Sequence record: NZ_CP046475.1
Strand: one strand, 5' to 3'
Length of the DNA: 54,436 nt
Source: a plasmid
Position 1 is the stretch's first letter, and each line of letters starts with the position of its first letter. The notes under the pieces were generated by a model. That model did no database searches. It was not told the origin of the DNA and was given only the letters and a program-made list of their open reading frames with translations. A program made the position numbers and the translations under genes. Of the stretch, positions 8,022-50,024 are shown piece after piece.

Positions 8022-9995
8022 TCAGCGCATACGGGTGGTGGGCAGCTGTCCTGCGCCCCAGTTCTGGACTCCGGCGACGACCTTGACCCGCACGGTGGTG
8101 CCGCGAGGGGCGTACATCGACAGCGAGCGGGTCGAGCCGGTGGTGGTGTAGCTCGTGGTGACGGTCTTGGCAGAGTACTTGCGGTAGGACCAATCACTGG
8201 AGTGGTACTTACGGGCCTTGGGGAAGGTGCGAGTGACCTCGACGACGGAGCGGGCTGCGGGCGGGCCGCCGACGCCCTCGCGGGCGAGGAAGCGCACGCG
8301 GGCGTGCCACTGGCCTTCCTTGACGGTGGAACCGATGAGCTGGACGGGCCGGTAGGAGGTGGTCTCGATCATCGCGGCCTGGTCGAAGTCGGTCCAGCTG
8401 TCCCATCGCCCGGCTGACCACAGCGCGGTGATGGTGGAGTCGGCTCGCAGGTTGCCGGCGTCGGGGGTCCACGGCGACATCGGGTTGCGGTACCGGTCGT
8501 CGGCTACGGGTGTCACGTCGCGGTAGGTCCAGGTCGACCCGGCGTCGTCGGACCACCACTCCTGGACCCGTCCCTGCTCGGTGGGTCCGGGGTTGACCAG
8601 CAACGCTCGGGTGGTGCTGCCCGGGACGAGGTCGTAGCCCTGGGCGAACTCGGCGCCGTGGATCAGGGTGCGCCCGACCCACTCGCCGTTGGTCATGACA
8701 AACCACTTGTAACTGGAGGCCTTCGGCGCGCCCTCGGGCTTGAAATTCGTCGTCATCGCCAACGCAAGCCGACCTTCAGGGTCGCGCTGGATGTCGTAGA
8801 CCCGCGCCGGGCCCTCGGCAGAGCTCCCGTTGTAGATCAACGTCCCCTCACGCGGGTCCATCGGCGAGGAACGCAGGTCGCTCATGGCACGGATGGGCTG
8901 CCCGTCGGAACGGGAGAAGACCCCGTCCTGGTAGCGGATGTGGAACTGGGAGTTCGTCGCGAGGTTGACCGGGTCGCCGTCGGTGACGGCGATGTCGAGG
9001 GTGCCCTGCCCGTCGCTGACGAACTTCATGTAGCTCCACCCCTTGGAGACGTCCTTGGGGTAGGGGTTGGTGAAGAGCTGGACTGCGGGGGTCCACATCC
9101 GCAGGTCCTTCGAACGGGTCAGGTACCAGTCGTTGCGGTTGTCGTCGGGGTTGCGCAGCCGGGTGAGCAGCCAGTACGGGTGGGAGTCCCCACGCAGGTA
9201 GTGCACCTGGGTGTAGGTCGCCATCCGATGCGCCACGCCCGAGCCAGCCAGGCGCTGCACCGGGCGGAAGTCCATCGCGTCCGCGCTGGTCGAGACTCGG
9301 TACTGCACCTCGGTCGAGGCGTGACCGGACCAGAACGCCGCGATCCGCCCGTCACCGGTCTGCAGCAACGACGGCGAGGCGTGGTCGTCGGCGACCCCAC
9401 GCCCCAGCGCGGCGTCGATCCGCGCGACCCGTGCGTGCTGCAGGGCGTGCTTGGCCTTCGAAACCCGGGTGACCTCTATGTCGCCTTTGGTCGACGTCGT
9501 GCCGACGTAGGTCGCCGCCCGCGTGGTCAGGGCCCGCGGGTTCATGTACCACGACCACGTCCCGTCAGCCACGAGCTGGGTGCGTCGCACACCCGCGCGC
9601 ATCGGGGCCTTGACGACCTCGCCGTCAGGGGTCTCGATCGACCCACCGTCGGCCGGGGAGATCGAGCGAGCCGCCGCACGGGTGCCCTGCGCCACGATCG
9701 GGCTGCCCGACACGTTGACTTTCGTGCTGGGCACCGCAGCCGGCAACGAGCCCGTCCCGCCCAGATCTGTCGGCACGGTCAGCACCTTGCCCCCACGACG
9801 CACCGTGACAAAGTCACGACCCTCGACGTTGCGCTCCCCCGGGCTCGAGGACACCCCACCCGGAGCAGCAGCCGAAGCCGCCGGGGCGCCCGCCGCGGGC
9901 ACCAAGATCGCGCCGGCCACCGCCGTCACCACCAGAGCAGGAAGCGCCCCACGGCGCAGCGACAAACGAGAAGAGAACACTCTCCGGACCCCCAT
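8022..9995 (-). CDS. Secreted protein with a BNR/Asp-box motif (possible glycosyl hydrolase/sialidase-like)
   Basis: Signal peptide MGVRRVFSSRLSLRRGALPALVVTAVAGAILVPAAGA; Asp-box SDDAGSTW; 657 aa. The longest ORF extends to 10073. Confidence 0.55.
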   Translation of the reverse strand: MGVRRVFSSRLSLRRGALPALVVTAVAGAILVPAAGAPAASAAAPGGVSSSPGERNVEGRDFVTVRRGGKVLTVPTDLGGTGSLPAAVPSTKVNVSGSPIVAQGTRAAARSISPADGGSIETPDGEVVKAPMRAGVRRTQLVADGTWSWYMNPRALTTRAATYVGTTSTKGDIEVTRVSKAKHALQHARVARIDAALGRGVADDHASPSLLQTGDGRIAAFWSGHASTEVQYRVSTSADAMDFRPVQRLAGSGVAHRMATYTQVHYLRGDSHPYWLLTRLRNPDDNRNDWYLTRSKDLRMWTPAVQLFTNPYPKDVSKGWSYMKFVSDGQGTLDIAVTDGDPVNLATNSQFHIRYQDGVFSRSDGQPIRAMSDLRSSPMDPREGTLIYNGSSAEGPARVYDIQRDPEGRLALAMTTNFKPEGAPKASSYKWFVMTNGEWVGRTLIHGAEFAQGYDLVPGSTTRALLVNPGPTEQGRVQEWWSDDAGSTWTYRDVTPVADDRYRNPMSPWTPDAGNLRADSTITALWSAGRWDSWTDFDQAAMIETTSYRPVQLIGSTVKEGQWHARVRFLAREGVGGPPAARSVVEVTRTFPKARKYHSSDWSYRKYSAKTVTTSYTTTGSTRSLSMYAPRGTTVRVKVVAGVQNWGAGQLPTTRMR

Positions 9996-42498: not shown

Positions 42499-42957
42499 GT
42501 GGACTTCGAGAGCCGCCTTCGCCTTGAGGCCGATGCAGCCGCGGTGGGTGCAGCCCTCGAGGCGAACGGCGGCCAGCTGGTCCACCGCAGAGGTGATGGT
42601 GAGCCCCCCGAGGTAGACCCCCCGGGGCTGTACTGGGCCTTCATCCAGCCGCAGAACCAGGACGCCGCCAGGTTCTTAGCTCGCCTGCAGTGGACTGTCT
42701 ACCCGGACCGACCCCCGTCTCTGCTCTTCGCGACGGACGTCGCCGGCCCCACCGATGTCCCTTCTGCGTGGCCTGCCGCCGCCGGGTACCGAGCGCCGAC
42801 GGACGTGTGCAAGCCCTTCACCGCCGAAGGTCAGGCGCTCCATACCGAATGGTCCAACGGGCCACATGCCTGGCGCAGCACCGGTAACCCGTTCCTGTAC
42901 GTCATCGAGACAGTTCAAAGCGACATCGACCGAGCACGAGGAGCCCGAGCAGGATGA
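42499..42957 (+). CDS. E2-like ubiquitin-conjugating enzyme homolog (candidate)
   Basis: 152 aa; 3-nt spacer after the Ubl gene; single conserved-looking Cys in TDVCKPFT. Confidence 0.4.
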   Translation: MDFESRLRLEADAAAVGAALEANGGQLVHRRGDGEPPEVDPPGLYWAFIQPQNQDAARFLARLQWTVYPDRPPSLLFATDVAGPTDVPSAWPAAAGYRAPTDVCKPFTAEGQALHTEWSNGPHAWRSTGNPFLYVIETVQSDIDRARGARAG

Positions 42958-43445
42958 CCCAGACCCATCTGCAGATCGGCAGCGACGCCGTCACGCGCCT
43001 CATCGCCGACGTGCAACATCATGGTCAGCTCGGAGTCGAGACCGGCGCCGTGCTCCTCAGTCCACGTGGCGAACCCACTGTTACTCACCTGGCGATCGCA
43101 GGAGATGTCGGAGTCGTTCGTCGGCGAGGGTTGTTCGTGCTTTCCGCAGCGGCGCTGGGGCCACTGTTCGACTTCGCCGAAGAGCGGGACCTTCAGCTGC
43201 GCGCGCAGGTGCACTCGCACCATGGCAGGGCATTTCTCTCGCCCACCGACGAAGCGGGCAACATCAGAATGACCGGCTTCGTCGCTGCTGTAATTCCGAC
43301 CTTCACCCACCCCTCAACAGACGTCGACCTTTGGGGTTGGTGGACCTTCGACGGATCCTGCTGGGTGCCCTCGCCGGCAGCCAGCCTTGGCGACCTGGAA
43401 ACCACGGTGCTGACCTTCGACGCGGAAGGGGTTCGCGATGAGTGA
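42954..43445 (+). CDS. JAB/MPN (JAMM) metalloprotease / deubiquitinase-like
   Basis: JAMM-like motif E...HSHHGRAFLSPTD (HxH...S..D); ATGA overlap with the E2-like gene. Confidence 0.6.
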   Translation: MTQTHLQIGSDAVTRLIADVQHHGQLGVETGAVLLSPRGEPTVTHLAIAGDVGVVRRRGLFVLSAAALGPLFDFAEERDLQLRAQVHSHHGRAFLSPTDEAGNIRMTGFVAAVIPTFTHPSTDVDLWGWWTFDGSCWVPSPAASLGDLETTVLTFDAEGVRDE

Positions 43446-44937
43446 CCTCATCGTGCCGCCCGCCCATGAGCGGGGGGCCGACTACAGCCGAACCTTGCGG
43501 CTTGCCGCAGCCAACGCCGCCCACGACGAGATTGCCCTCAAGTCACGCCTTGAAGGCAGCGTTGTCCGTGTCAGCGCAGACCCCACAGCGCCTGCCGCGC
43601 TGATCACGCTCCAGGTGCTCGTCGCGAATCTCCGCCGCCTCCCGGTCCAGCTCCATCTGGACCCTCGCGGTGGGGATAAAGAGATCCCGTCTCGCTGGCT
43701 GAGTGACCTGGAGCAGCTCGCCGCTGGGATTGACCCCGAGCGGCCGCTTGTCGTGACCAGCCGCGTGGGGGATGGGGTACATGTCCATGTCGGCACCAGC
43801 AGCACAACCGCACTGGCCTCTGGCGTTGCCGATGGGCACGGCACCCGTATACGTCCTCGCGGCACTGGTTTCTCGACTCTGGCTGCTGCCGGCACAGGGC
43901 TGGGCGGTGTCCTGACGGCCTCGTTGCTCACTGCCGAGGTGTTCAAGGTGGTCGTAGGTGTTTTGCCAAACCGCCGCGGCGACCTTCGCCCCATCGACTT
44001 CTGCCCTGTCACCCTGGACGCGCCGCAGCGCGAAGTGGCGCTACTGGGGACCCTGCACGACACCACCCTGGTCGGGTGCGGCGCCATCGGGACAGCAATC
44101 GCCCTAATTCTGCGAGAACTCACAGCAGACGGCACGCTGACGGTGGTCGACCCTCAGATCTTCGAAACACCGAACGTGACCACCTACAGTCTCGGCGATC
44201 TCGACGATGCGGCCAGCCAGGTCCGCAAGGTCGACCTCATTGAGCGCGAGCTGCGCACCATGGACGTCTCTCCTCATGAAGGTTTTGCCCGCGACTACAT
44301 CGACGCCATCGAGAACGGTCAGTTCACGATGCCGCAGATCGTCCTCGGCGCCCTCGACAGCATCGAGGCGCGCCACGACATCGCAGCGATCCACGCTCAG
44401 CACGTCCTCGACGGCAGCACAGGAGGACCGGCCGGGACCATGCTGAGCCTGTCCGAAGCGACCTGGGCCGGGCCATGCCTACGCTGCTATTTCCCAGCCC
44501 GAACCTCGGAAGCGCCGACAACAGACGAGCTGCTGGCCCAACGCACCGGCCTCTCGCTTGCCCGGATTTCCCGCGGTCAGGACCCTTTGACCCCGCAAGA
44601 GCTCGACGAACTGGGTCAGCTGAGCGAGAAGGATCGCGCGATCCTTGAGACGCAGGTCGGCAAAGCAGTCTGCGGGCTTGGTAAGGCGCTGGGGCTAGTA
44701 GGACAGGCAGACGACTTCAACCCCTCTGCCGCCTTCGTCGCCCAACAAGCCGCCGCCCTGGTGGTTGGATCTCTGATCCGCGGTGGGCTTGGCGCACAAG
44801 CACGCTCCGTGCAGTACGACGCACTCTTCGGCCCTCGTGACGAGATGACCATGGCTCGGTCACCGCAGCCTGATTGTCGATGCCAAACACAGCGCTCCCT
44901 CCACGAGCAGGTCCGCAGCTACCGGGGGGCGCAGTAG
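43438..44937 (+). CDS. E1-like (ThiF/MoeB/UBA-family) activating enzyme
   Basis: Rossmann motif LVGCGAIGTAIALIL; 8-nt overlap with the JAB gene; 499 aa. Confidence 0.7.
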   Translation: MSDLIVPPAHERGADYSRTLRLAAANAAHDEIALKSRLEGSVVRVSADPTAPAALITLQVLVANLRRLPVQLHLDPRGGDKEIPSRWLSDLEQLAAGIDPERPLVVTSRVGDGVHVHVGTSSTTALASGVADGHGTRIRPRGTGFSTLAAAGTGLGGVLTASLLTAEVFKVVVGVLPNRRGDLRPIDFCPVTLDAPQREVALLGTLHDTTLVGCGAIGTAIALILRELTADGTLTVVDPQIFETPNVTTYSLGDLDDAASQVRKVDLIERELRTMDVSPHEGFARDYIDAIENGQFTMPQIVLGALDSIEARHDIAAIHAQHVLDGSTGGPAGTMLSLSEATWAGPCLRCYFPARTSEAPTTDELLAQRTGLSLARISRGQDPLTPQELDELGQLSEKDRAILETQVGKAVCGLGKALGLVGQADDFNPSAAFVAQQAAALVVGSLIRGGLGAQARSVQYDALFGPRDEMTMARSPQPDCRCQTQRSLHEQVRSYRGAQ

Positions 44938-45321
44938 TCCGACCACCTCGTGCACGGTCCCCGCAACCCGAGCCCGTCGCTGGAGATCGGTGAGCGCGGG
45001 GACCCTCCAACCCGCCCCCGGTGATCTGCCCATGGGGCGGTGTGACGCCGAAGTGAGGAGCGATTTCTTGGGTACTCGGCGACGGGGGCACGATCGACCC
45101 CGTACATCCGGCCCACGCGAAGACGAATTTTCGAAGGAACGCGCGAACCCCCTCCTTGCTGATGGGATGTCACTCCTTCGCTGTCTGCGCCGGGCCAGGC
45201 GATGTTGCCGCAGGTACGGGTTTGGGAAGTTTTCCGTCGAACCCTTCTCGGAGGTCGAGCGTGACCCCTACCTTCTGTCTTGCACACCGCGAATAGCGCG
45301 GTGCAGTCAGGGGAGTTCAAT

Positions 45322-46665
45322 ATGCGATCGTCGCGTCGATTGAGATTGGCTGTGGGCTTGTCCGCCGCCTTCGCCACACTGGCCGCGGGAGCGGCCAGTG
45401 CCGTCGATACCAACCCGAAGCCGCCGATGACGATGGAGCTCGCTCGCGAGATCACCCATTCGACTCGCCCTCTAACCACCGAGGAGGTTGATCGCTTCGA
45501 GGAGGCTCTCGCTGTCAGGTGGGGTGCTGCTCGACCTGATCAGGTCGCGGAACGTCTCAAGGAGACTCTGCGAGCTCTGGGTCGTGACGGTGGCGCGACG
45601 TGGATCTCCGAGGAGGAGACCCTCCACGTGTATGTGTCTGGCCCAGACCTTGGCAGGGTTGTCGCTGTCGACAAGATAAAGACCTTGGTGACGGAGATCC
45701 TTCGTGGATCAAACGTCAAGGTGCAGGTGCACGCTGGAGGCGTTCGGTCCGAGGAGCAGCTGGTCTCGACGATGGACGCCGTGGCCGACACCAAGAGCTA
45801 CGACTCCACCGGGACGGTGCAGATCCGAGCCCAGCGCATCGACTACTCCACCGGGACGGTCGAGGTCGATGCGACCAGCCAGGCCGCCGCCGACATCGTC
45901 GAGAAGCAGTTCGGCGACGCCGTGAAGGTCCAGGTCAAGGCCCCCTACACCCAAGACGAGCTCGACGAGATGTTCGAGGCTGAGGGGCGCCGTAACGACT
46001 CGCCGAGTAACGGGTGGAACGGCGGCACCGCGATGTGCACCGCGACGACGGGGGACTGCATCTTCGATGCCGAGGCTGGAACTGCTGGAGATTCAGCGGC
46101 CTGCACCACAGGTCTGAAGTGGGTTCTCGCTGGTCAGGTGCGCTTGGCAACTGCTGGTCATTGCTTCGCCGAGCCTACGATCAACACGTTCTATCGATAC
46201 GAGTTTCCTCGGTATGGAATTGCTACCCGGGCCGGAACCTTCTGGGCATTCAACACGAATGTCGACGGCGCTCTGATCGACCCGCCGAATGGATACTCTG
46301 TTCGCAACGAATTCTGGATCGGCGGTCGGTACGGCAGTGATAGCCGTGAGATCACCGCATGGGACGACACGTTGAGCGTGGGTCAGCCCCTGCTGGTCTC
46401 GGGCGCCAACAGTGGTGTGCACACCGGCGAGGTCCGCATCGTCTTCGACCGCGAGTGCGGAACCCCGCTGACCACCACCAACATCGACTCGACGACGGGC
46501 GGGGACTCGGGCGCCACCGTCGCACAGCCGAACAGCGCCTCGCCGGAGAGTGGAGACTACGTCGCGCTAGGGGTTCACTCCTGCCGAGTCAAGGGTGGCT
46601 TCTCTCGGTTCTCGCGCGCCGCCACGATCGCCAACGAGCTTGGTGGGTACCCCGCTACCTACTAG
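45322..46665 (+). CDS. Secreted S1-family serine protease (alpha-lytic/streptogrisin-like) with N-terminal prodomain
   Basis: Signal peptide; catalytic triad contexts TAGHCF, DGALID, GDSGA; GGGGAG SD. The longest ORF starts at 45280. Confidence 0.85.
   Translation: MRSSRRLRLAVGLSAAFATLAAGAASAVDTNPKPPMTMELAREITHSTRPLTTEEVDRFEEALAVRWGAARPDQVAERLKETLRALGRDGGATWISEEETLHVYVSGPDLGRVVAVDKIKTLVTEILRGSNVKVQVHAGGVRSEEQLVSTMDAVADTKSYDSTGTVQIRAQRIDYSTGTVEVDATSQAAADIVEKQFGDAVKVQVKAPYTQDELDEMFEAEGRRNDSPSNGWNGGTAMCTATTGDCIFDAEAGTAGDSAACTTGLKWVLAGQVRLATAGHCFAEPTINTFYRYEFPRYGIATRAGTFWAFNTNVDGALIDPPNGYSVRNEFWIGGRYGSDSREITAWDDTLSVGQPLLVSGANSGVHTGEVRIVFDRECGTPLTTTNIDSTTGGDSGATVAQPNSASPESGDYVALGVHSCRVKGGFSRFSRAATIANELGGYPATY
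45727..45978. repeat. Inverted-repeat copy A (~250 bp, 1 mismatch) within the protease prodomain-coding region
   Basis: Reverse complement matches 47608..47856. The antisense ORFs 45709..45954(-) and 47629..47835(+) translate identically over 68 aa. Confidence 0.75.
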
Positions 46666-46733
46666 ACCCAACGAGCAACACGCTGGGCCGAGCACTCACG
46701 TGCTCGGCCCAGTGCTCGCCCAGCCCACGAAGA

Positions 46734-47540
46734 TCAGGTGTAGATCGCGAGGTAGTCGACGATGAGGAGGGGCCCCTCGAGGAACAGCTCCTTATCGGCA
46801 TCGTTCGCAGGCCCCTCCCGTTCCTGGCGACGCCGCTCCGCGCGGGAGTTGACGTTCATACCTGGCAGTGACAGGAGCGGGTAGAAGCTACCCGCTGGGA
46901 TGGTCCTCTTGACCTTGGCGACGATCCTCGCGTAGCCATCGAACGACGCGCCCGGGGCGATCCACTGGTTGTTGAGTGAACCGACGATCTTCCAGTCGCT
47001 CCCATTCATGTCTTCACTGACCACTACCAACGCCACGTCGACGTTCTCGAGAAAACCGGCGACCGCGCTCATCTCTGCCGCGTCGGGCAGCCCCTCCATG
47101 TCGAGACCCAACGCTCGCGCCTGCGGCATGAGCGTCTCCATCGTCTTCAGCGCCTCCTTGAACTCGCCTTGGTTGGCGACCGGGGCGATGCTCTCTGGCA
47201 CGTAGACCTCGCACTCCCAGTCGATGAGGGTTCCTGTGCCGGTGCTGGGGAACTCGGTGTCAGGCTCGAGGACCTCACGCCACTCGTGCTCTTCGGGCTT
47301 AGCGCGGCCTGCAGCGATGAGCCGCTGCAGGCGTGAAGCGTCGTGATCATCGACGTTGAGGGTGGACTCGTCCTCGGAGTCCGAGCGCGCCTCTAGCCGC
47401 GCGCCCGGGAACCCCGCGGCCCCTCCGAACCCGTGCCCCCCCTTCGATCGAGCGGAGCCGGATCGTCGTAGTCCCCCTTCCGCACTGGCGATGTAGCTCG
47501 CCAGTGCGTCGCCGTCGAGGTACAGGGCGTTGATCAGCAT
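46734..47540 (-). CDS. Hypothetical protein, third gene of the sigma/anti-sigma operon
   Basis: 268-aa ORF 25 bp downstream of the anti-sigma gene; no recognised motif. Confidence 0.45.
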   Translation of the reverse strand: MLINALYLDGDALASYIASAEGGLRRSGSARSKGGHGFGGAAGFPGARLEARSDSEDESTLNVDDHDASRLQRLIAAGRAKPEEHEWREVLEPDTEFPSTGTGTLIDWECEVYVPESIAPVANQGEFKEALKTMETLMPQARALGLDMEGLPDAAEMSAVAGFLENVDVALVVVSEDMNGSDWKIVGSLNNQWIAPGASFDGYARIVAKVKRTIPAGSFYPLLSLPGMNVNSRAERRRQEREGPANDADKELFLEGPLLIVDYLAIYT

Positions 47541-47565
47541 GTGGATCTCCTGCTGTTGGTAAAGG

Positions 47566-48330
47566 TCAGTTGTCGGCGGGCGCGGGGGAGGGGACGTTCT
47601 TCATTCCGAACATCTCGTCGAGCTCGTCTTGGGTGTAGGGGGCCTTGACCTGGACCTTCACGGCGTCGCCGAACTGCTTCTCGACGATGTCGGCGGCGGC
47701 CTGGCTGGTCGCATCGACCTCGACCGTCCCGGTGGAGTAGTCGATGCGCTGGGCTCGGATCTGCACCGTCCCGGTGGAGTCGTAGCTCTTGGTGTCGGCC
47801 ACGGCGTCCATCGTCGAGACCAGCTGCTCCTCTGACCGAACGCCTCCAGCGTGCACTGCGACGGTGAAGTCGACGGTGCCGGTCAGCTCATCACCCACGG
47901 CCTGGGTCTTCTCAACGGCAGCGTTCTTGCCGTCTGCGGGCCCGGAGACGTAGATGTTGAGCGTCTTCTTCTCCGAGATCCACGTCGCGCCGCCGTTGCG
48001 GCCCTGGGCGCCGAGGATCTCGGCCAGCCGGTCTGCGACCTGGTCGGGGCGGGGATTCGCGGGAAGGTCGGTGCCGGCGGACTGAATGGACGACGACGAG
48101 CTCGAGGCGACGTCGATGACCGCGGGCTCATCGCCTCCACGGACGGTCAGGCCCACCCCGCCAGCGACGATCGCGACCCCCAGTACTGCGCCCAGCGCCG
48201 TGTGACGGCGCCGCCGTTGGCGGCTGCTGGCGGCCGCGATGAACGAGTCCAGCGGTGGCACGTCCTGACGTGCGCGGTCGGCTTCGTCATTGATGAGGGT
48301 GCGGACGGCATCGAGATCGGGGCTGCTCAT
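47566..48330 (-). CDS. Anti-sigma factor-like membrane protein whose extracytoplasmic domain duplicates the protease prodomain segment
   Basis: ATGA overlap with the ECF sigma gene; N-terminal cytoplasmic region, one TM (LGAVLGVAIVAGGVGLTV), then VHAGGVRSEEQLVSTMDAVADTKSYDSTGTVQIRAQRIDYSTGTVEVDATSQAAADIVEKQFGDAVKVQVKAPYTQDELDEMF, identical to the protease segment. Confidence 0.6.
   Translation of the reverse strand: MSSPDLDAVRTLINDEADRARQDVPPLDSFIAAASSRQRRRRHTALGAVLGVAIVAGGVGLTVRGGDEPAVIDVASSSSSSIQSAGTDLPANPRPDQVADRLAEILGAQGRNGGATWISEKKTLNIYVSGPADGKNAAVEKTQAVGDELTGTVDFTVAVHAGGVRSEEQLVSTMDAVADTKSYDSTGTVQIRAQRIDYSTGTVEVDATSQAAADIVEKQFGDAVKVQVKAPYTQDELDEMFGMKNVPSPAPADN
47608..47856. repeat. Inverted-repeat copy B
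   Basis: See copy A; the single mismatch is ctcctcTgacc versus ctcctcGgacc. Confidence 0.75.
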
Positions 48331-48815
48331 GACGGTTCTCCTAGACGATCGCGAAGGGTGGTGCGCGCCCTGGACAGGCGCGACTTGACAGTTCCGATGG
48401 GCACAGCGAGCTCTTCAGCGATCTCGGCATCGGTGAGGTCGTGGACGGCGCGTCGGACCACGACCTCACGCTGGCTGGCGGGCAGGTCGCGGATCGCTTG
48501 CCAGATCTCGTGCTGGTAAGGGTGGTCGCCGACTGGCCTAGGGGGAGGTTCGTGATCTGGCGCAGCCAGTTGGCGGCGTGATCGTCGCTGCTCGTCGACC
48601 GCGAGCCGATACCCGACGGTGCGTAGCCAGGCGATGGGGCTGTCGTACTTCGACACCTTGTTCCAGTGCAGGACGAGCCGGGTGAACGCCTCGTTGGCGC
48701 AGTCCTCAGCCGAAGCGCGCGAGCCGGCCACCACGGTCAGCTCACCCACCAGGCGGGGGTAGAAGGCAGCGTGTATCTCCTCCAGGCCCTCGCGGTTCTG
48801 CAACTTCATGCCCAT
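48327..48815 (-). CDS. ECF-type RNA polymerase sigma factor
   Basis: Region-2-like AFTRLVLHWNKV; region-4 HTH DLTDAEIAEELAVPIGTVKSRLSRAR; 162 aa. Confidence 0.8.
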   Translation of the reverse strand: MGMKLQNREGLEEIHAAFYPRLVGELTVVAGSRASAEDCANEAFTRLVLHWNKVSKYDSPIAWLRTVGYRLAVDEQRRSRRQLAAPDHEPPPRPVGDHPYQHEIWQAIRDLPASQREVVVRRAVHDLTDAEIAEELAVPIGTVKSRLSRARTTLRDRLGEPS

Positions 48816-49094
48816 ATGACGCTGTGACGCACCGCTGGTTCCATCAGCGTCTCAACTTTCTGTCCTCCATGGCGTGCAGGGCCTCGCCTAGCGATCAGAC
48901 GCGCTCGGTGACTGCCGTCCTGGCAAATCTAGAAGGGCCTGCGGTCGCCCAACGAGGCCCTCTCGGTCAGCGACACCGCAACGGTCATGGAGATCTCCCG
49001 CGGCCGCGTCTCCCGGCTCACCAGCAGCGTCGAATAACCCATGCCGCAGTGCTTGCTGCCCTAGTCGCACCGCAGGCACCGGTAGTTTCCCCGC

Positions 49095-50024
49095 ATGCCC
49101 TTCCACACCACCGCCGTCCAGGTGATGCTCGCCTCTCCCGGGGACACCTCTAAGCAGCGTGCAGAGATCCTGACCGCAGTTGCGCGGTGGAACGGCCGCC
49201 ATGCGCAGTTGCGCGGGTTCGTCATCACTCCTTGGCTCTACGAACTGCACGCCACGCCGTTGTACGGCCAGCGTGCACAAACCATCGTCAACGAGCAGGG
49301 CGTCGACAAGTCCGACGTCGTCATCGTCATCTTCGGCGACAAGCTGGGCACACCGACCGGGGTCGATCTCTCGGGCACGGTCGAGGAGATGAGGCGCGCG
49401 CACGAGCTGGGCAAGCGTGTGCACGTCTACTTCTCATCCGCTGACGTGCCCCAGGACAAGATCACTGACGCCGTCGCACTCAGCGAGTTCAAGGCCAAGT
49501 TCGAAGAAGCCCAGCTCGGCTACTACGAGACCTACACCGACCCCAGGGACCTCTCGTTGAAGGTGATCGAGGCACTCGAGACCGACCTGACTGTCTTCGG
49601 GGAGGCCCCTGCGCCCAAGACCCCTGCTGGGGTCGTCCTCCGGGTCACCTTCGAGGCGAGAACACCGCCCGAGCAGCAGCCCGCCCTCATTCCGTCGACC
49701 TACAGCACCGAAACCTCAAGGTCGCTGCATCAAATGGCTGCCAGAAGAGCTGCCGAGCCCGTCAGGCAGCTGCTGATCAGCAATACCGGCGAAGTTGACG
49801 CCGAGAAGGTGCAAGTCAAGCTCGTTCCTCCACCCGGTGTCTCCGTATCGGTGAGGCACACCGACGACGACGGGTGGACTTCTCCGCGCGATCTCACAGT
49901 CGACTCAGTGTTCGCCCTGGAGTTGGTCCGCAGGCGAACTAGGCCAACGAACGTCGACGTGATGACGCGGTGGGTCGAGGCAGACAAGATGCAGGAGAAG
50001 ACTTTCACCACCCACGTGTACTGA
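49095..50024 (+). CDS. DUF4062-like N-terminal domain protein (possible defence-associated)
   Basis: VMLASPGDTSKQRAEI...DVVIVIFGDKLGTPTGVDLSGTVEEMRRAHELGKRVHVYF fits the DUF4062 pattern (..FG.RYG...S.TE.E...A...g.pv.vF). Confidence 0.45.
   Translation: MPFHTTAVQVMLASPGDTSKQRAEILTAVARWNGRHAQLRGFVITPWLYELHATPLYGQRAQTIVNEQGVDKSDVVIVIFGDKLGTPTGVDLSGTVEEMRRAHELGKRVHVYFSSADVPQDKITDAVALSEFKAKFEEAQLGYYETYTDPRDLSLKVIEALETDLTVFGEAPAPKTPAGVVLRVTFEARTPPEQQPALIPSTYSTETSRSLHQMAARRAAEPVRQLLISNTGEVDAEKVQVKLVPPPGVSVSVRHTDDDGWTSPRDLTVDSVFALELVRRRTRPTNVDVMTRWVEADKMQEKTFTTHVY

Follow-up and report, generated by a model that had tools for sequence, protein, structure and literature searches.

We analysed a three-gene locus on a plasmid of Janibacter melonis (~60.9 kb; sequence record NZ_CP046475.1; locus tags EEW87_17685 to 17695), within a stretch of 54,436 nucleotides that we call the window. 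The locus, at positions 45,322 to 48,815, holds the gene of a secreted S1 serine protease with a pro-region and, on the opposite strand, the gene of a sigma factor of the extracytoplasmic function (ECF) type followed by that of its candidate anti-sigma factor, a predicted single-pass membrane protein. The ectodomain of the anti-sigma candidate is a full-length paralogue of the two-lobed pro-region of the protease, and the C-terminal parts of the two copies form an almost perfect inverted repeat. The module of ECF sigma factor, single-pass anti-sigma factor and secreted, alpha-lytic-like S1 protease is conserved and mobile. Its main features, with position in the window and strand, are these:

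45322..46665, plus strand: prepro-S1 serine protease of 447 amino acids (aa), with an ATG start and an AGGGGAG ribosome-binding site 7 nt upstream
Protease aa 1-27, plus strand: signal peptide, ending ...ASA before VD, then an N-extension of 43 aa (aa 28-70)
45532-45981, plus strand: two-lobed pro-like domain of the protease (aa 71-220), between the signal peptide and the start of the catalytic domain
From 45976, plus strand: catalytic domain of the protease, from EAEGRR, with His, Asp and Ser motifs
46150-46164, 46261-46278 and 46498-46515, plus strand: catalytic motifs TAGHC (His), VDGALI (Asp) and GGDSGA (Ser)
45727..45976, plus strand: inverted-repeat arm A, the tract in the protease gene (aa 136-218, lobe 2 and C-terminal helix), ending ...DEMF
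47607..47856, minus strand: inverted-repeat arm B, the tract in the anti-sigma gene (aa 159-241, lobe 2 and C-terminal helix)
47566..48330, minus strand: anti-sigma candidate of 254 aa, coupled to the sigma gene, single-pass, with a pro-like ectodomain
48199-48330, minus strand: cytoplasmic N-terminus of the anti-sigma candidate (aa 1-44), ending in RQRRRRH
48142-48198, minus strand: transmembrane helix of the anti-sigma candidate (aa 45-63), then a Ser-rich linker
47602-48051, minus strand: pro-like ectodomain of the anti-sigma candidate (aa 94-243), then a 12-residue Pro/Ser-rich tail
48327..48815, minus strand: gene of the ECF sigma factor (162 codons, counting from its first ATG), with Pfam and NCBIfam matches

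A preliminary description of this DNA had placed the repeat at 45727..45978 and 47608..47856, inside both coding regions and with a single mismatch. Base-by-base comparison sets the arms at 45727-45976 and 47607-47856, 250 nt each; the earlier coordinates were thus correct to 1-2 nt, the placement in the two coding regions was right, and alignment finds 249 of the 250 positions identical. The mismatch, C at 45750 against A at 47833 (coding strand of the minus-strand gene), falls in a synonymous Ser codon. A near-perfect repeat of this length within 54 kb is far beyond chance. Its edges are abrupt: the codons for VHAGG (45727 / 47856) are the first identical ones and those for ...DEMF (45976 / 47607) the last, and in arm A the latter directly precede the conserved EAEGRR.DSPSNGWNGG start of the catalytic part. 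Upstream of the tract, colinearity and reading frame persist between the two genes over ~190 nt, with nucleotide identity down to ~50-75%; downstream, similarity between them ends entirely. The paralogous domain, ~150 aa, is therefore longer than the identical tract, and at the protein level residues 85-233 of the protease (numbered in the open reading frame as listed) align with residues 94-242 of the anti-sigma candidate at E = 1e-77. The assignment of both arms to lobe 2 and the C-terminal helix is taken from a predicted structure model. Lobe 2 also contains an internal direct repeat, 45800-45825 / 45842-45867, 42 nt apart and 85% identical, with mirror copies at 47716-47741 / 47758-47783; it encodes ...DSTGTVQI... 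and ...YSTGTVEV....

We wondered whether so clean a repeat could have been created by assembly, an outcome that the preliminary description had named as fatal to its reading. An equivalent inverted repeat is present in G56, a Janibacter sp. with a complete chromosome (locus L010), where it starts at VHAGG and ends at EMFQ, with the same boundaries as in the window. The two G56 copies are ~98% identical to each other, one has a 24-nt deletion, and they carry a version of the sequence unlike that of the window. Other, short-read assemblies of J. melonis break at the repeat: their protease and anti-sigma proteins run off the ends of contigs and are incomplete, and the catalytic part is found on separate contigs of 1,629 and 1,724 nt, matching the 1,630-nt spacer. 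Because G56 has the equivalent repeat and the J. melonis assemblies break at it, the repeat is no assembly artefact. The deletion in the G56 anti-sigma copy is in frame (DTKSYDTT is lost) and adjoins the internal direct repeat, which suggests slippage as its origin.

The two halves of the shared domain have different histories. The N-half groups by gene type, protease-type apart from anti-sigma-type, and the C-half groups by genome or lineage: in the C-half the window protease equals the window anti-sigma candidate, with the anti-sigma P0004 close to it; the proteases of P0002 and G56 are similar to the anti-sigmas P0006 and P0011; and the protease P0010 and the anti-sigma P0005 have identical domain ends. 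Synonymous divergence (dS) between the window and G56 is similarly mosaic. It amounts to 0.07-0.11 for the sigma gene and the 5' part of the anti-sigma gene, to 1.1-1.7, near saturation, for the protease gene, and to 0.36-0.38 for the tract in both genes, from which it follows that conversion ran both ways, on separate occasions. The tract has sharp boundaries that are common to both genomes, and the converted part (domain residues 66-148) is lobe 2 with the C-terminal helix. Recurrent, bidirectional gene conversion, limited to the C-terminal lobe and tail, evidently keeps the two copies matched. The preliminary description had offered ongoing gene conversion or a very recent duplication as the origin of the near-identity; the former holds, whereas the latter conflicts with the old, diverged flanks, the mosaic grouping, the distinct G56 version and the dS values. 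Near-perfect identity, taken alone, would be compatible with either an artefact or a very recent one-off duplication. Given an independent complete genome with an equivalent repeat of different sequence, contigs that break at the repeat, and flanking homology that is old, diverged and sharply bounded with a mosaic dS pattern, we give these two explanations virtually no chance. Between the window and L010, neighbouring genes are strongly discordant in evolutionary depth (dS 0.08 for sigma versus >1 for the protease). This indicates recombination or exchange of module halves among Janibacter lineages, in addition to conversion between the two genes.

Public annotations start the protease later, giving products of 345 aa (P0001), a form that omits the signal peptide, or 435 aa (QGX08837.1). 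Our comparison supports the 447-aa form starting at 45322 as the probable protein, because its N-terminus is conserved in P0002 and G56. The catalytic motifs lie at residues 277 (TAGHC), 314 (VDGALI) and 393 (GGDSGA) and are kept throughout the family, among others in P0007-P0009, in G56 and in the protease of locus L015. Searches with single sequences and small profiles returned no Pfam (E up to 10), NCBIfam or PDB sequence match for the window protease and no significant one for the anti-sigma candidate; matches to ribosomal protein S11 and flagellin were rejected as short chance similarities. The paralogues P0007 and P0008 match Trypsin / Trypsin_2 at 0.002-0.015, below the cut-off, over the His-to-Ser region. 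An exhaustive HMMER search of 1.84 billion representative proteins collected 107 relatives. Scanning 104 of them gave 17 with a Pfam Trypsin match of E up to 1e-3 (best 2e-10) and two with a match to PF02983, the alpha-lytic prodomain (best 9e-6); P0030 has a sub-threshold PF02983 match that maps to lobe 1, and the Pfam scan gave no PF02983 match for either window copy of the pro-like domain. Members of the cluster carry public names such as 'trypsin-like' and 'chymotrypsin family serine protease'. In a full-length AlphaFold model of the protease, built from a five-sequence alignment, the catalytic half has a predicted local distance difference test score (pLDDT) below 35, too low for this half to be used. 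Membership of the window protease in S1 thus appears to be transitive, passing through these homologues.

The pro-like domain is predicted to fold into a two-lobed alpha/beta structure whose best superposition is on the Pro region of alpha-lytic protease, and it can be superposed on 2PRO/4PRO. By colinearity, lobe 2 with the C-terminal helix corresponds to the Pro C domain. The Pro region of alpha-lytic protease binds the enzyme tightly. It serves as a folding catalyst in trans and lends stability to the folded complex; it works in cis or in trans and is degraded by the mature protease (PMC2829044, bioRxiv 10.1101/2020.08.30.274340). Its C-terminus and the junction lie across the active site, it contacts the protease's C-terminal domain, and its C domain is the conserved protease-contacting core and the only part present in SGPB (PMC2829044, bioRxiv 10.1101/2020.08.30.274340). 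The preliminary description had called the enzyme a secreted S1 protease with a prodomain, and the conserved TAGHC/D/GGDSG motifs, the relatives that match Trypsin and PF02983 and the fold of the domain bear this out indirectly.

The window protease resembles alpha-lytic and SGPB-type prepro-enzymes in having a signal peptide, a two-lobed region of ~150-190 aa, predicted to fold most like the alpha-lytic Pro region, and an S1 domain with His/Asp/Ser motifs, and in that some of its relatives match PF00089 and PF02983. It differs from them in being too divergent for a direct Pfam family or PDB match, in a catalytic part that opens with the EAEGRR.DSPSNGWNGG motif and has extra Cys-rich loops, and in the second copy of its pro-region, fused to the anti-sigma candidate.

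The protein that carries this second copy begins within the sigma gene: the sigma stop and the anti-sigma start overlap as ATGA in the sequence. It has one hydrophobic window, aa 45-63 (Kyte-Doolittle 2.18), with RQRRRRH in front. Because of this hydropathy and the positive-inside rule, we predict a single-pass topology with the N-terminus inside and the C-terminus outside. This supports the preliminary description, which had a single-pass membrane protein coupled to an ECF sigma gene. The 44-aa cytoplasmic part is highly conserved, at 95% identity to that of G56 (nonsynonymous divergence, dN, 0.02). Neither it nor the rest of the protein matches, at E up to 10, an anti-sigma family of Pfam or NCBIfam, such as zf-HC2/ZAS, RskA or the class I ASD. 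Its gene adjoins the sigma gene in L001, L002, L005, L008, L010, L011, L012 and L015, and the orthologues always follow sigma. Position, coupling, topology and conserved pairing make the product of 47566-48330 a candidate anti-sigma factor.

Paralogues of the anti-sigma or lipoprotein kind stop only a few residues before or after the position at which the proteases go on with EAEGRR.DSPSNGWNGG, and therefore correspond to complete pro-regions including the tail. The Janibacter anti-sigmas carry 12-25 further residues after the ...MF junction. Some anti-sigma homologues have additional C-terminal modules beyond the pro-like domain. One is P0003 (L004), with an extension of ~100 aa that includes the zinc motif HETGHSVGLAH; its metzincin matches are sub-threshold, and we do not claim it as a protease. 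Should P0003 truly be a metalloprotease, its pro-like domain would stand in front of another kind of protease, one that is part of the anti-sigma protein. Another is P0020, whose extension of ~150 aa has no match.

The sigma factor itself matches Pfam Sigma70_r2 (1e-07) and Sigma70_r4_2 (3e-15) and no other domain. It passes the NCBIfam model TIGR02937 (sigma70-ECF, 65.8 bits against a cut-off of 42.9) and stays below that of TIGR02983 (SigE-fam_strep, 1.7e-34, 119 bits against 141.6), which leaves it outside this subfamily. It is 97% identical to its G56 orthologue. By its domains it is an ordinary ECF (group IV) member of the sigma-70 family. Features that bear on transcription of the locus are the following:

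48816..48845, minus strand: ECF-type autoregulatory promoter (putative), GATGGAACCAGCGGTGCGTCACAGCGTCAT, with a GGAAC -35 element, a 16-nt spacer and a CGTC -10 element, ending 2 nt before the ATG
46734..47540, minus strand: DUF6414 gene (Pfam DUF6414, 3.2e-25), with an AGGAG ribosome-binding site
46683..46712, no strand assigned: perfect GC-rich hairpin with a 13-bp stem, between the convergent protease and DUF6414 genes
45286..45302, plus strand: palindrome ACCGCGAATAGCGCGGT (ACCGCG-N5-CGCGGT), immediately upstream of the protease ribosome-binding site

The candidate promoter has the form TGGAACCA-N11-CAGCGTCAT and lies directly upstream of the sigma start codon. It is part of a 30-nt block kept at an equal position in all six sigma-upstream regions compared (window, G56, L001, L002, L005 and L008), and it is the sole strong match to a position weight matrix (PWM) in the window, where it scores 47 and the runner-up 7, as well as in L010. 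Because the element ends 2 nt before the ATG, it implies a leaderless or near-leaderless transcript, presumably autoregulated; the third codon, an ATG at 48809, may be the true leaderless start. The DUF6414 gene starts 25 nt after the anti-sigma stop and in the window is probably co-transcribed with the sigma and anti-sigma genes, under the ECF sigma factor. It is a plasmid-specific accessory insertion and not a core part of the module, because it is absent from the G56 locus. The family is mentioned in a survey of defence systems; PADLOC gave no match for the window protein. The hairpin at 46683-46712 is likely a bidirectional terminator that lacks a T-tract; scans for sigma-70 and terminator consensus sequences returned nothing and did not call it.

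We then asked how far the arrangement extends. G56 has the same three genes, with the protease convergent on anti-sigma and sigma, stop codons 47 nt apart and no DUF6414. J. melonis GCA_023712135.1 and two other assemblies (L001-L003) retain an intact sigma/anti-sigma pair and, convergent to it, only the last 81 codons of a protease, 88% identical (L001 8846-9088; L002 and L003 3863-4105). As this remnant lies in the same convergent position, the convergent triad is ancestral in Janibacter. In this J. melonis lineage the sensor pair has outlived the neighbouring protease, and the L001 genome encodes a more distant S1 paralogue, P0009, elsewhere, adjoining ISL3 transposases. The module is mobile, being plasmid-borne in J. 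melonis and chromosomal in G56.

Outside Janibacter, a distant metagenomic lineage (L015/L016) encodes, on one strand, an ECF sigma factor, the anti-sigma-like protein P0036 and a 467-aa S1 protease that is 48% identical to P0008. The ectodomain of P0036 and the N-terminal region of the neighbouring protease are 42% identical (E = 1e-39). Two more anti-sigma-like proteins have an ectodomain of this kind, P0028 and P0054 (the latter from Cellulomonas gilvus), and the gene of each comes straight after an ECF sigma gene and overlaps it; the convergent neighbour of P0054 in C. gilvus is not a protease. All four anti-sigma-like lineages that were tested thus stand beside ECF sigma genes. Relatives with protease-prodomain ectodomains, which the preliminary description had proposed to look for, therefore exist in G56 and in L015/L016, with P0028 and P0054 also next to ECF sigma genes.

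The paralogy also takes a second format. In L017 (509-2558) the S1 protease P0008 is followed after 11 nt by a lipoprotein, P0018, which is a paralogue of its pro-region; the partner-specific similarity of the two is concentrated in lobe 2 (54%, versus 31-36% with non-cognate proteases). Other such lipoproteins are P0034, P0035 and P0117. The 118 collected relatives include 12 anti-sigma-like proteins from at least five lineages, 13 proteins in which our own hidden Markov models recognise both pro-like and catalytic regions, and several lipoprotein or secreted forms that consist of the domain only. Indexed protein searches gave 5-13 relatives at the Janibacter level, the more distant ones coming from the HMMER search. 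A scan of genome contigs found the G56 locus only, a metagenome scan with the type-2 domain gave no match, and the plasmid collection gave none. The family is rare, tens of proteins in billions, and so far restricted to actinobacteria.

Taken together, these observations suggest the following mechanism, which we put forward tentatively and, as a whole, at somewhat under an even chance. The anti-sigma ectodomain would serve as a decoy pro-region tethered to the membrane. At the cell surface, the folded cognate protease would bind this decoy in the way it binds its own pro-region after cleavage, and would either degrade it or cut it at the ...DEMF junction that both proteins share. The cut would serve as the site-1 event, leading to intramembrane proteolysis of the truncated anti-sigma factor and release of sigma. 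Freed sigma would transcribe at least its own operon, together with DUF6414 on the plasmid; where the protease lies downstream on the same strand (L015), it may well belong to the sigma output, which would give positive feedback. Gene conversion would keep the decoy matched to a fast-evolving pro-region. That a functional link joins ectodomain and protease at all is something we infer from sequence, and the recurrence of the module in other lineages strengthens it. A wider claim would be that the locus represents an undescribed class of actinobacterial ECF signalling, in which an anti-sigma factor displays a decoy pro-region, the mature secreted S1 protease, or else a related lytic protease of a competitor, is both signal and site-1 protease, and conversion maintains the match between sensor and enzyme specificity while the pro-region changes fast; this is possible, if on balance doubtful.

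The same ectodomain could act by binding alone. It would then be a membrane-tethered foldase or inhibitor that takes up unfolded or freshly folded protease in trans at the cell surface and helps it to fold or shields the envelope of the producer. Sigma would respond to its occupancy, as a sensor of secretion or folding load or for immunity, with no site-1 cleavage by the protease. The catalysis of folding in trans and the stabilised complex of the alpha-lytic Pro region speak for this, as do the paralogues being full-length pro-regions and the free-standing lipoprotein that comes right after its cognate protease in L017 and has no signalling domain. It would however be left unexplained why, in no fewer than four of the lineages tested, the domain is fused to an N-terminus that is coupled to sigma, and the 12-25 extra residues after ...MF would need to be removed for product-like binding, which points to cleavage. 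We regard occupancy sensing as unlikely, though well short of far-fetched; computation does not separate binding from cleavage.

Several observations weigh against the decoy-cleavage mechanism and would suit a third explanation, in which there is no functional link: a generic sensor fold was duplicated once from a neighbouring gene and senses, for instance, envelope stress, and the near-identity reflects neutral, self-sustaining conversion of adjacent inverted paralogues. Pattern and PWM searches of the window and L010 found no ECF promoter before the Janibacter protease genes or DUF6414. Sigma/anti-sigma pairs persist where the protease is truncated (L001-L003) or non-adjacent (C. gilvus). 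The L015 pair shows no lobe-specific excess similarity between ectodomain and pro-region. The pro-like fold is generic, and an existing tract of high identity favours more conversion within the same limits. A further caveat concerns the breadth of the comparison: the Janibacter-type (A2) and second-type (A5) pro-like domains align with a weak hhalign probability of 11%, and we do not treat them as one proven family, their equivalence resting mainly on position upstream of homologous catalytic domains. On the other side, paralogy between a pro-region and a neighbouring membrane-tethered protein was acquired or retained independently by lineages far apart, and in two formats (anti-sigma for Janibacter and L015/16, lipoprotein for L017), every paralogue covers the entire pro-region and ends at the pro/catalytic junction, and the converted tract coincides with the lobe that contacts the protease in alpha-lytic protease. 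We therefore hold the absence of any link to be improbable, yet a serious contender. It is far less credible that the inverted repeats form a DNA inversion switch, swapping the 3' ends of the genes in frame to give a tethered anti-sigma-pro-S1 fusion and a secreted pro-domain. The arms do share the reading frame in both genes, so that two intact chimeric open reading frames would result, short-read assemblies leave the orientation of the 1.63-kb spacer ambiguous, and anti-sigma homologues with other C-terminal extensions exist (P0003, P0020). Yet the J. melonis plasmid, the G56 chromosome and the L001-L003 remnant all have the one convergent orientation, none of the 118 collected relatives joins an anti-sigma N-terminus to an S1 catalytic domain, the neighbours scanned include no recombinase gene, and the G56 spacer, without DUF6414, is only about 0.8-1.1 kb. 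The inversion of the intervening DNA raised in the preliminary description thus finds no counterpart in these three loci or in any chimeric protein.

The missing ECF promoter also bears on how the protease is controlled. The palindrome upstream of its gene is kept in three lineages, the window, G56 (L010, about 9757-9773) and L006, and in an alignment of the three regions conservation is limited to ~70 nt before the ATG. The palindrome is possibly an operator or a 5'-untranslated-region hairpin. Because no ECF promoter is found there and a conserved palindrome is found instead, the Janibacter protease seems to be controlled separately from the sigma operon. Of the two genes for which ECF-dependent transcription had been suggested, the protease gene therefore finds no support, the motif occurring only before the sigma operon, and the gene at 46734-47540 stays in as probably co-transcribed.

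The closest known concept to the decoy-cleavage mechanism is RsiV/sigma-V, where an anti-sigma factor is the direct receptor of a secreted hydrolase, as proposed here. The ectodomain of the single-pass anti-sigma RsiV is reported to bind lysozyme directly, which leads to site-1 cleavage and intramembrane proteolysis (PMC4183432, PMC5014341). The enzyme that RsiV senses comes from the host, no part of lysozyme is related to the RsiV ectodomain, and the cut is the work of signal peptidase; in the window the ectodomain is paralogous to the pro-region of the enzyme that would be sensed, and we propose that this same enzyme could be the site-1 protease.

Classical anti-sigma factors controlled by regulated intramembrane proteolysis include RseA/DegS, RsiW/PrsW, RsiP/signal peptidase and RsgI with SEAL autoproteolysis. 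The window system is like them in its ECF sigma factor and co-transcribed single-pass anti-sigma candidate, its putative autoregulatory promoter and the expected proteolysis of the ectodomain. It differs in that the anti-sigma candidate has no recognisable domain family and a short, 44-aa cytoplasmic part, that the candidate site-1 protease is the neighbouring secreted S1 enzyme, related to the ectodomain through its pro-region, and that the match between the paralogues is maintained by gene conversion. Free-standing propeptide-like inhibitors, such as the subtilisin-propeptide-like and cathepsin-propeptide-like ones, are also separate duplicates of a pro-region able to bind the cognate protease, and P0018 beside P0008 resembles them. 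In the window, by contrast, the duplicate is wired to a transcription factor, which goes beyond inhibition alone.

In the open-access literature we found no anti-sigma factor with a sensor domain that is a protease-pro-region paralogue, propeptide-like or alpha-lytic-like, and the main text of the 2021 ECF re-classification makes no mention of such an anti-sigma. For most pairs of ECF sigma and anti-sigma factors, neither the sensed signal nor the site-1 protease is known. Here the sequence itself points to a candidate for both, because the ectodomain copies the pro-region of the neighbouring protease, which in the alpha-lytic paradigm is bound and destroyed by the enzyme. It is the recurrence of the module that raises the locus above a curiosity and suggests an undescribed way in which a cell senses its own or a related protease. 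If the mechanism is true, duplication of a domain would here have produced a sensor that reads protease activity directly. The locus would also be a clear case, in bacteria, of a receptor and its ligand kept matched by concerted evolution, and would give synthetic biology a compact, orthogonal switch of sigma factor, anti-sigma factor and protease. Even with the sensing model wrong, it would still show cleanly, in nature, how conversion recurs within sharp limits between convergent genes of mobile DNA.

The surroundings of the module differ between genomes. In G56, the genes directly upstream of the protease, on its strand, encode a histidine kinase and a response regulator (L010 7263-9535), and a MerR gene, a mercuric-reductase-like gene, a resolvase and a large transposase-like open reading frame lie on the other side (L010 12713-17453), which suggests that the G56 module is carried on a transposon. 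On the plasmid the neighbours resemble a defence island, with a BilD-like E1, PDC-S60/DUF4062 and AAA_16. BilD is the E1 of the Bil ubiquitin-like antiphage system. The window protein in question, of the ThiF family (43438-44937, plus strand, with 42755-43441 upstream), matches PADLOC BilD at 4.6e-8 and gives weak matches to CBASS Cap2-type E1-E2 models. In J. melonis L001, ThiF+DUF6791, BubE and a resolvase are likewise found upstream of the sigma/anti-sigma pair, which again places the module in DNA resembling a defence island. Divergent from the sigma operon of the window, at 49095-50024 on the plus strand, is a DUF4062 protein that matches the PADLOC candidate PDC-S60 (3.9e-15).

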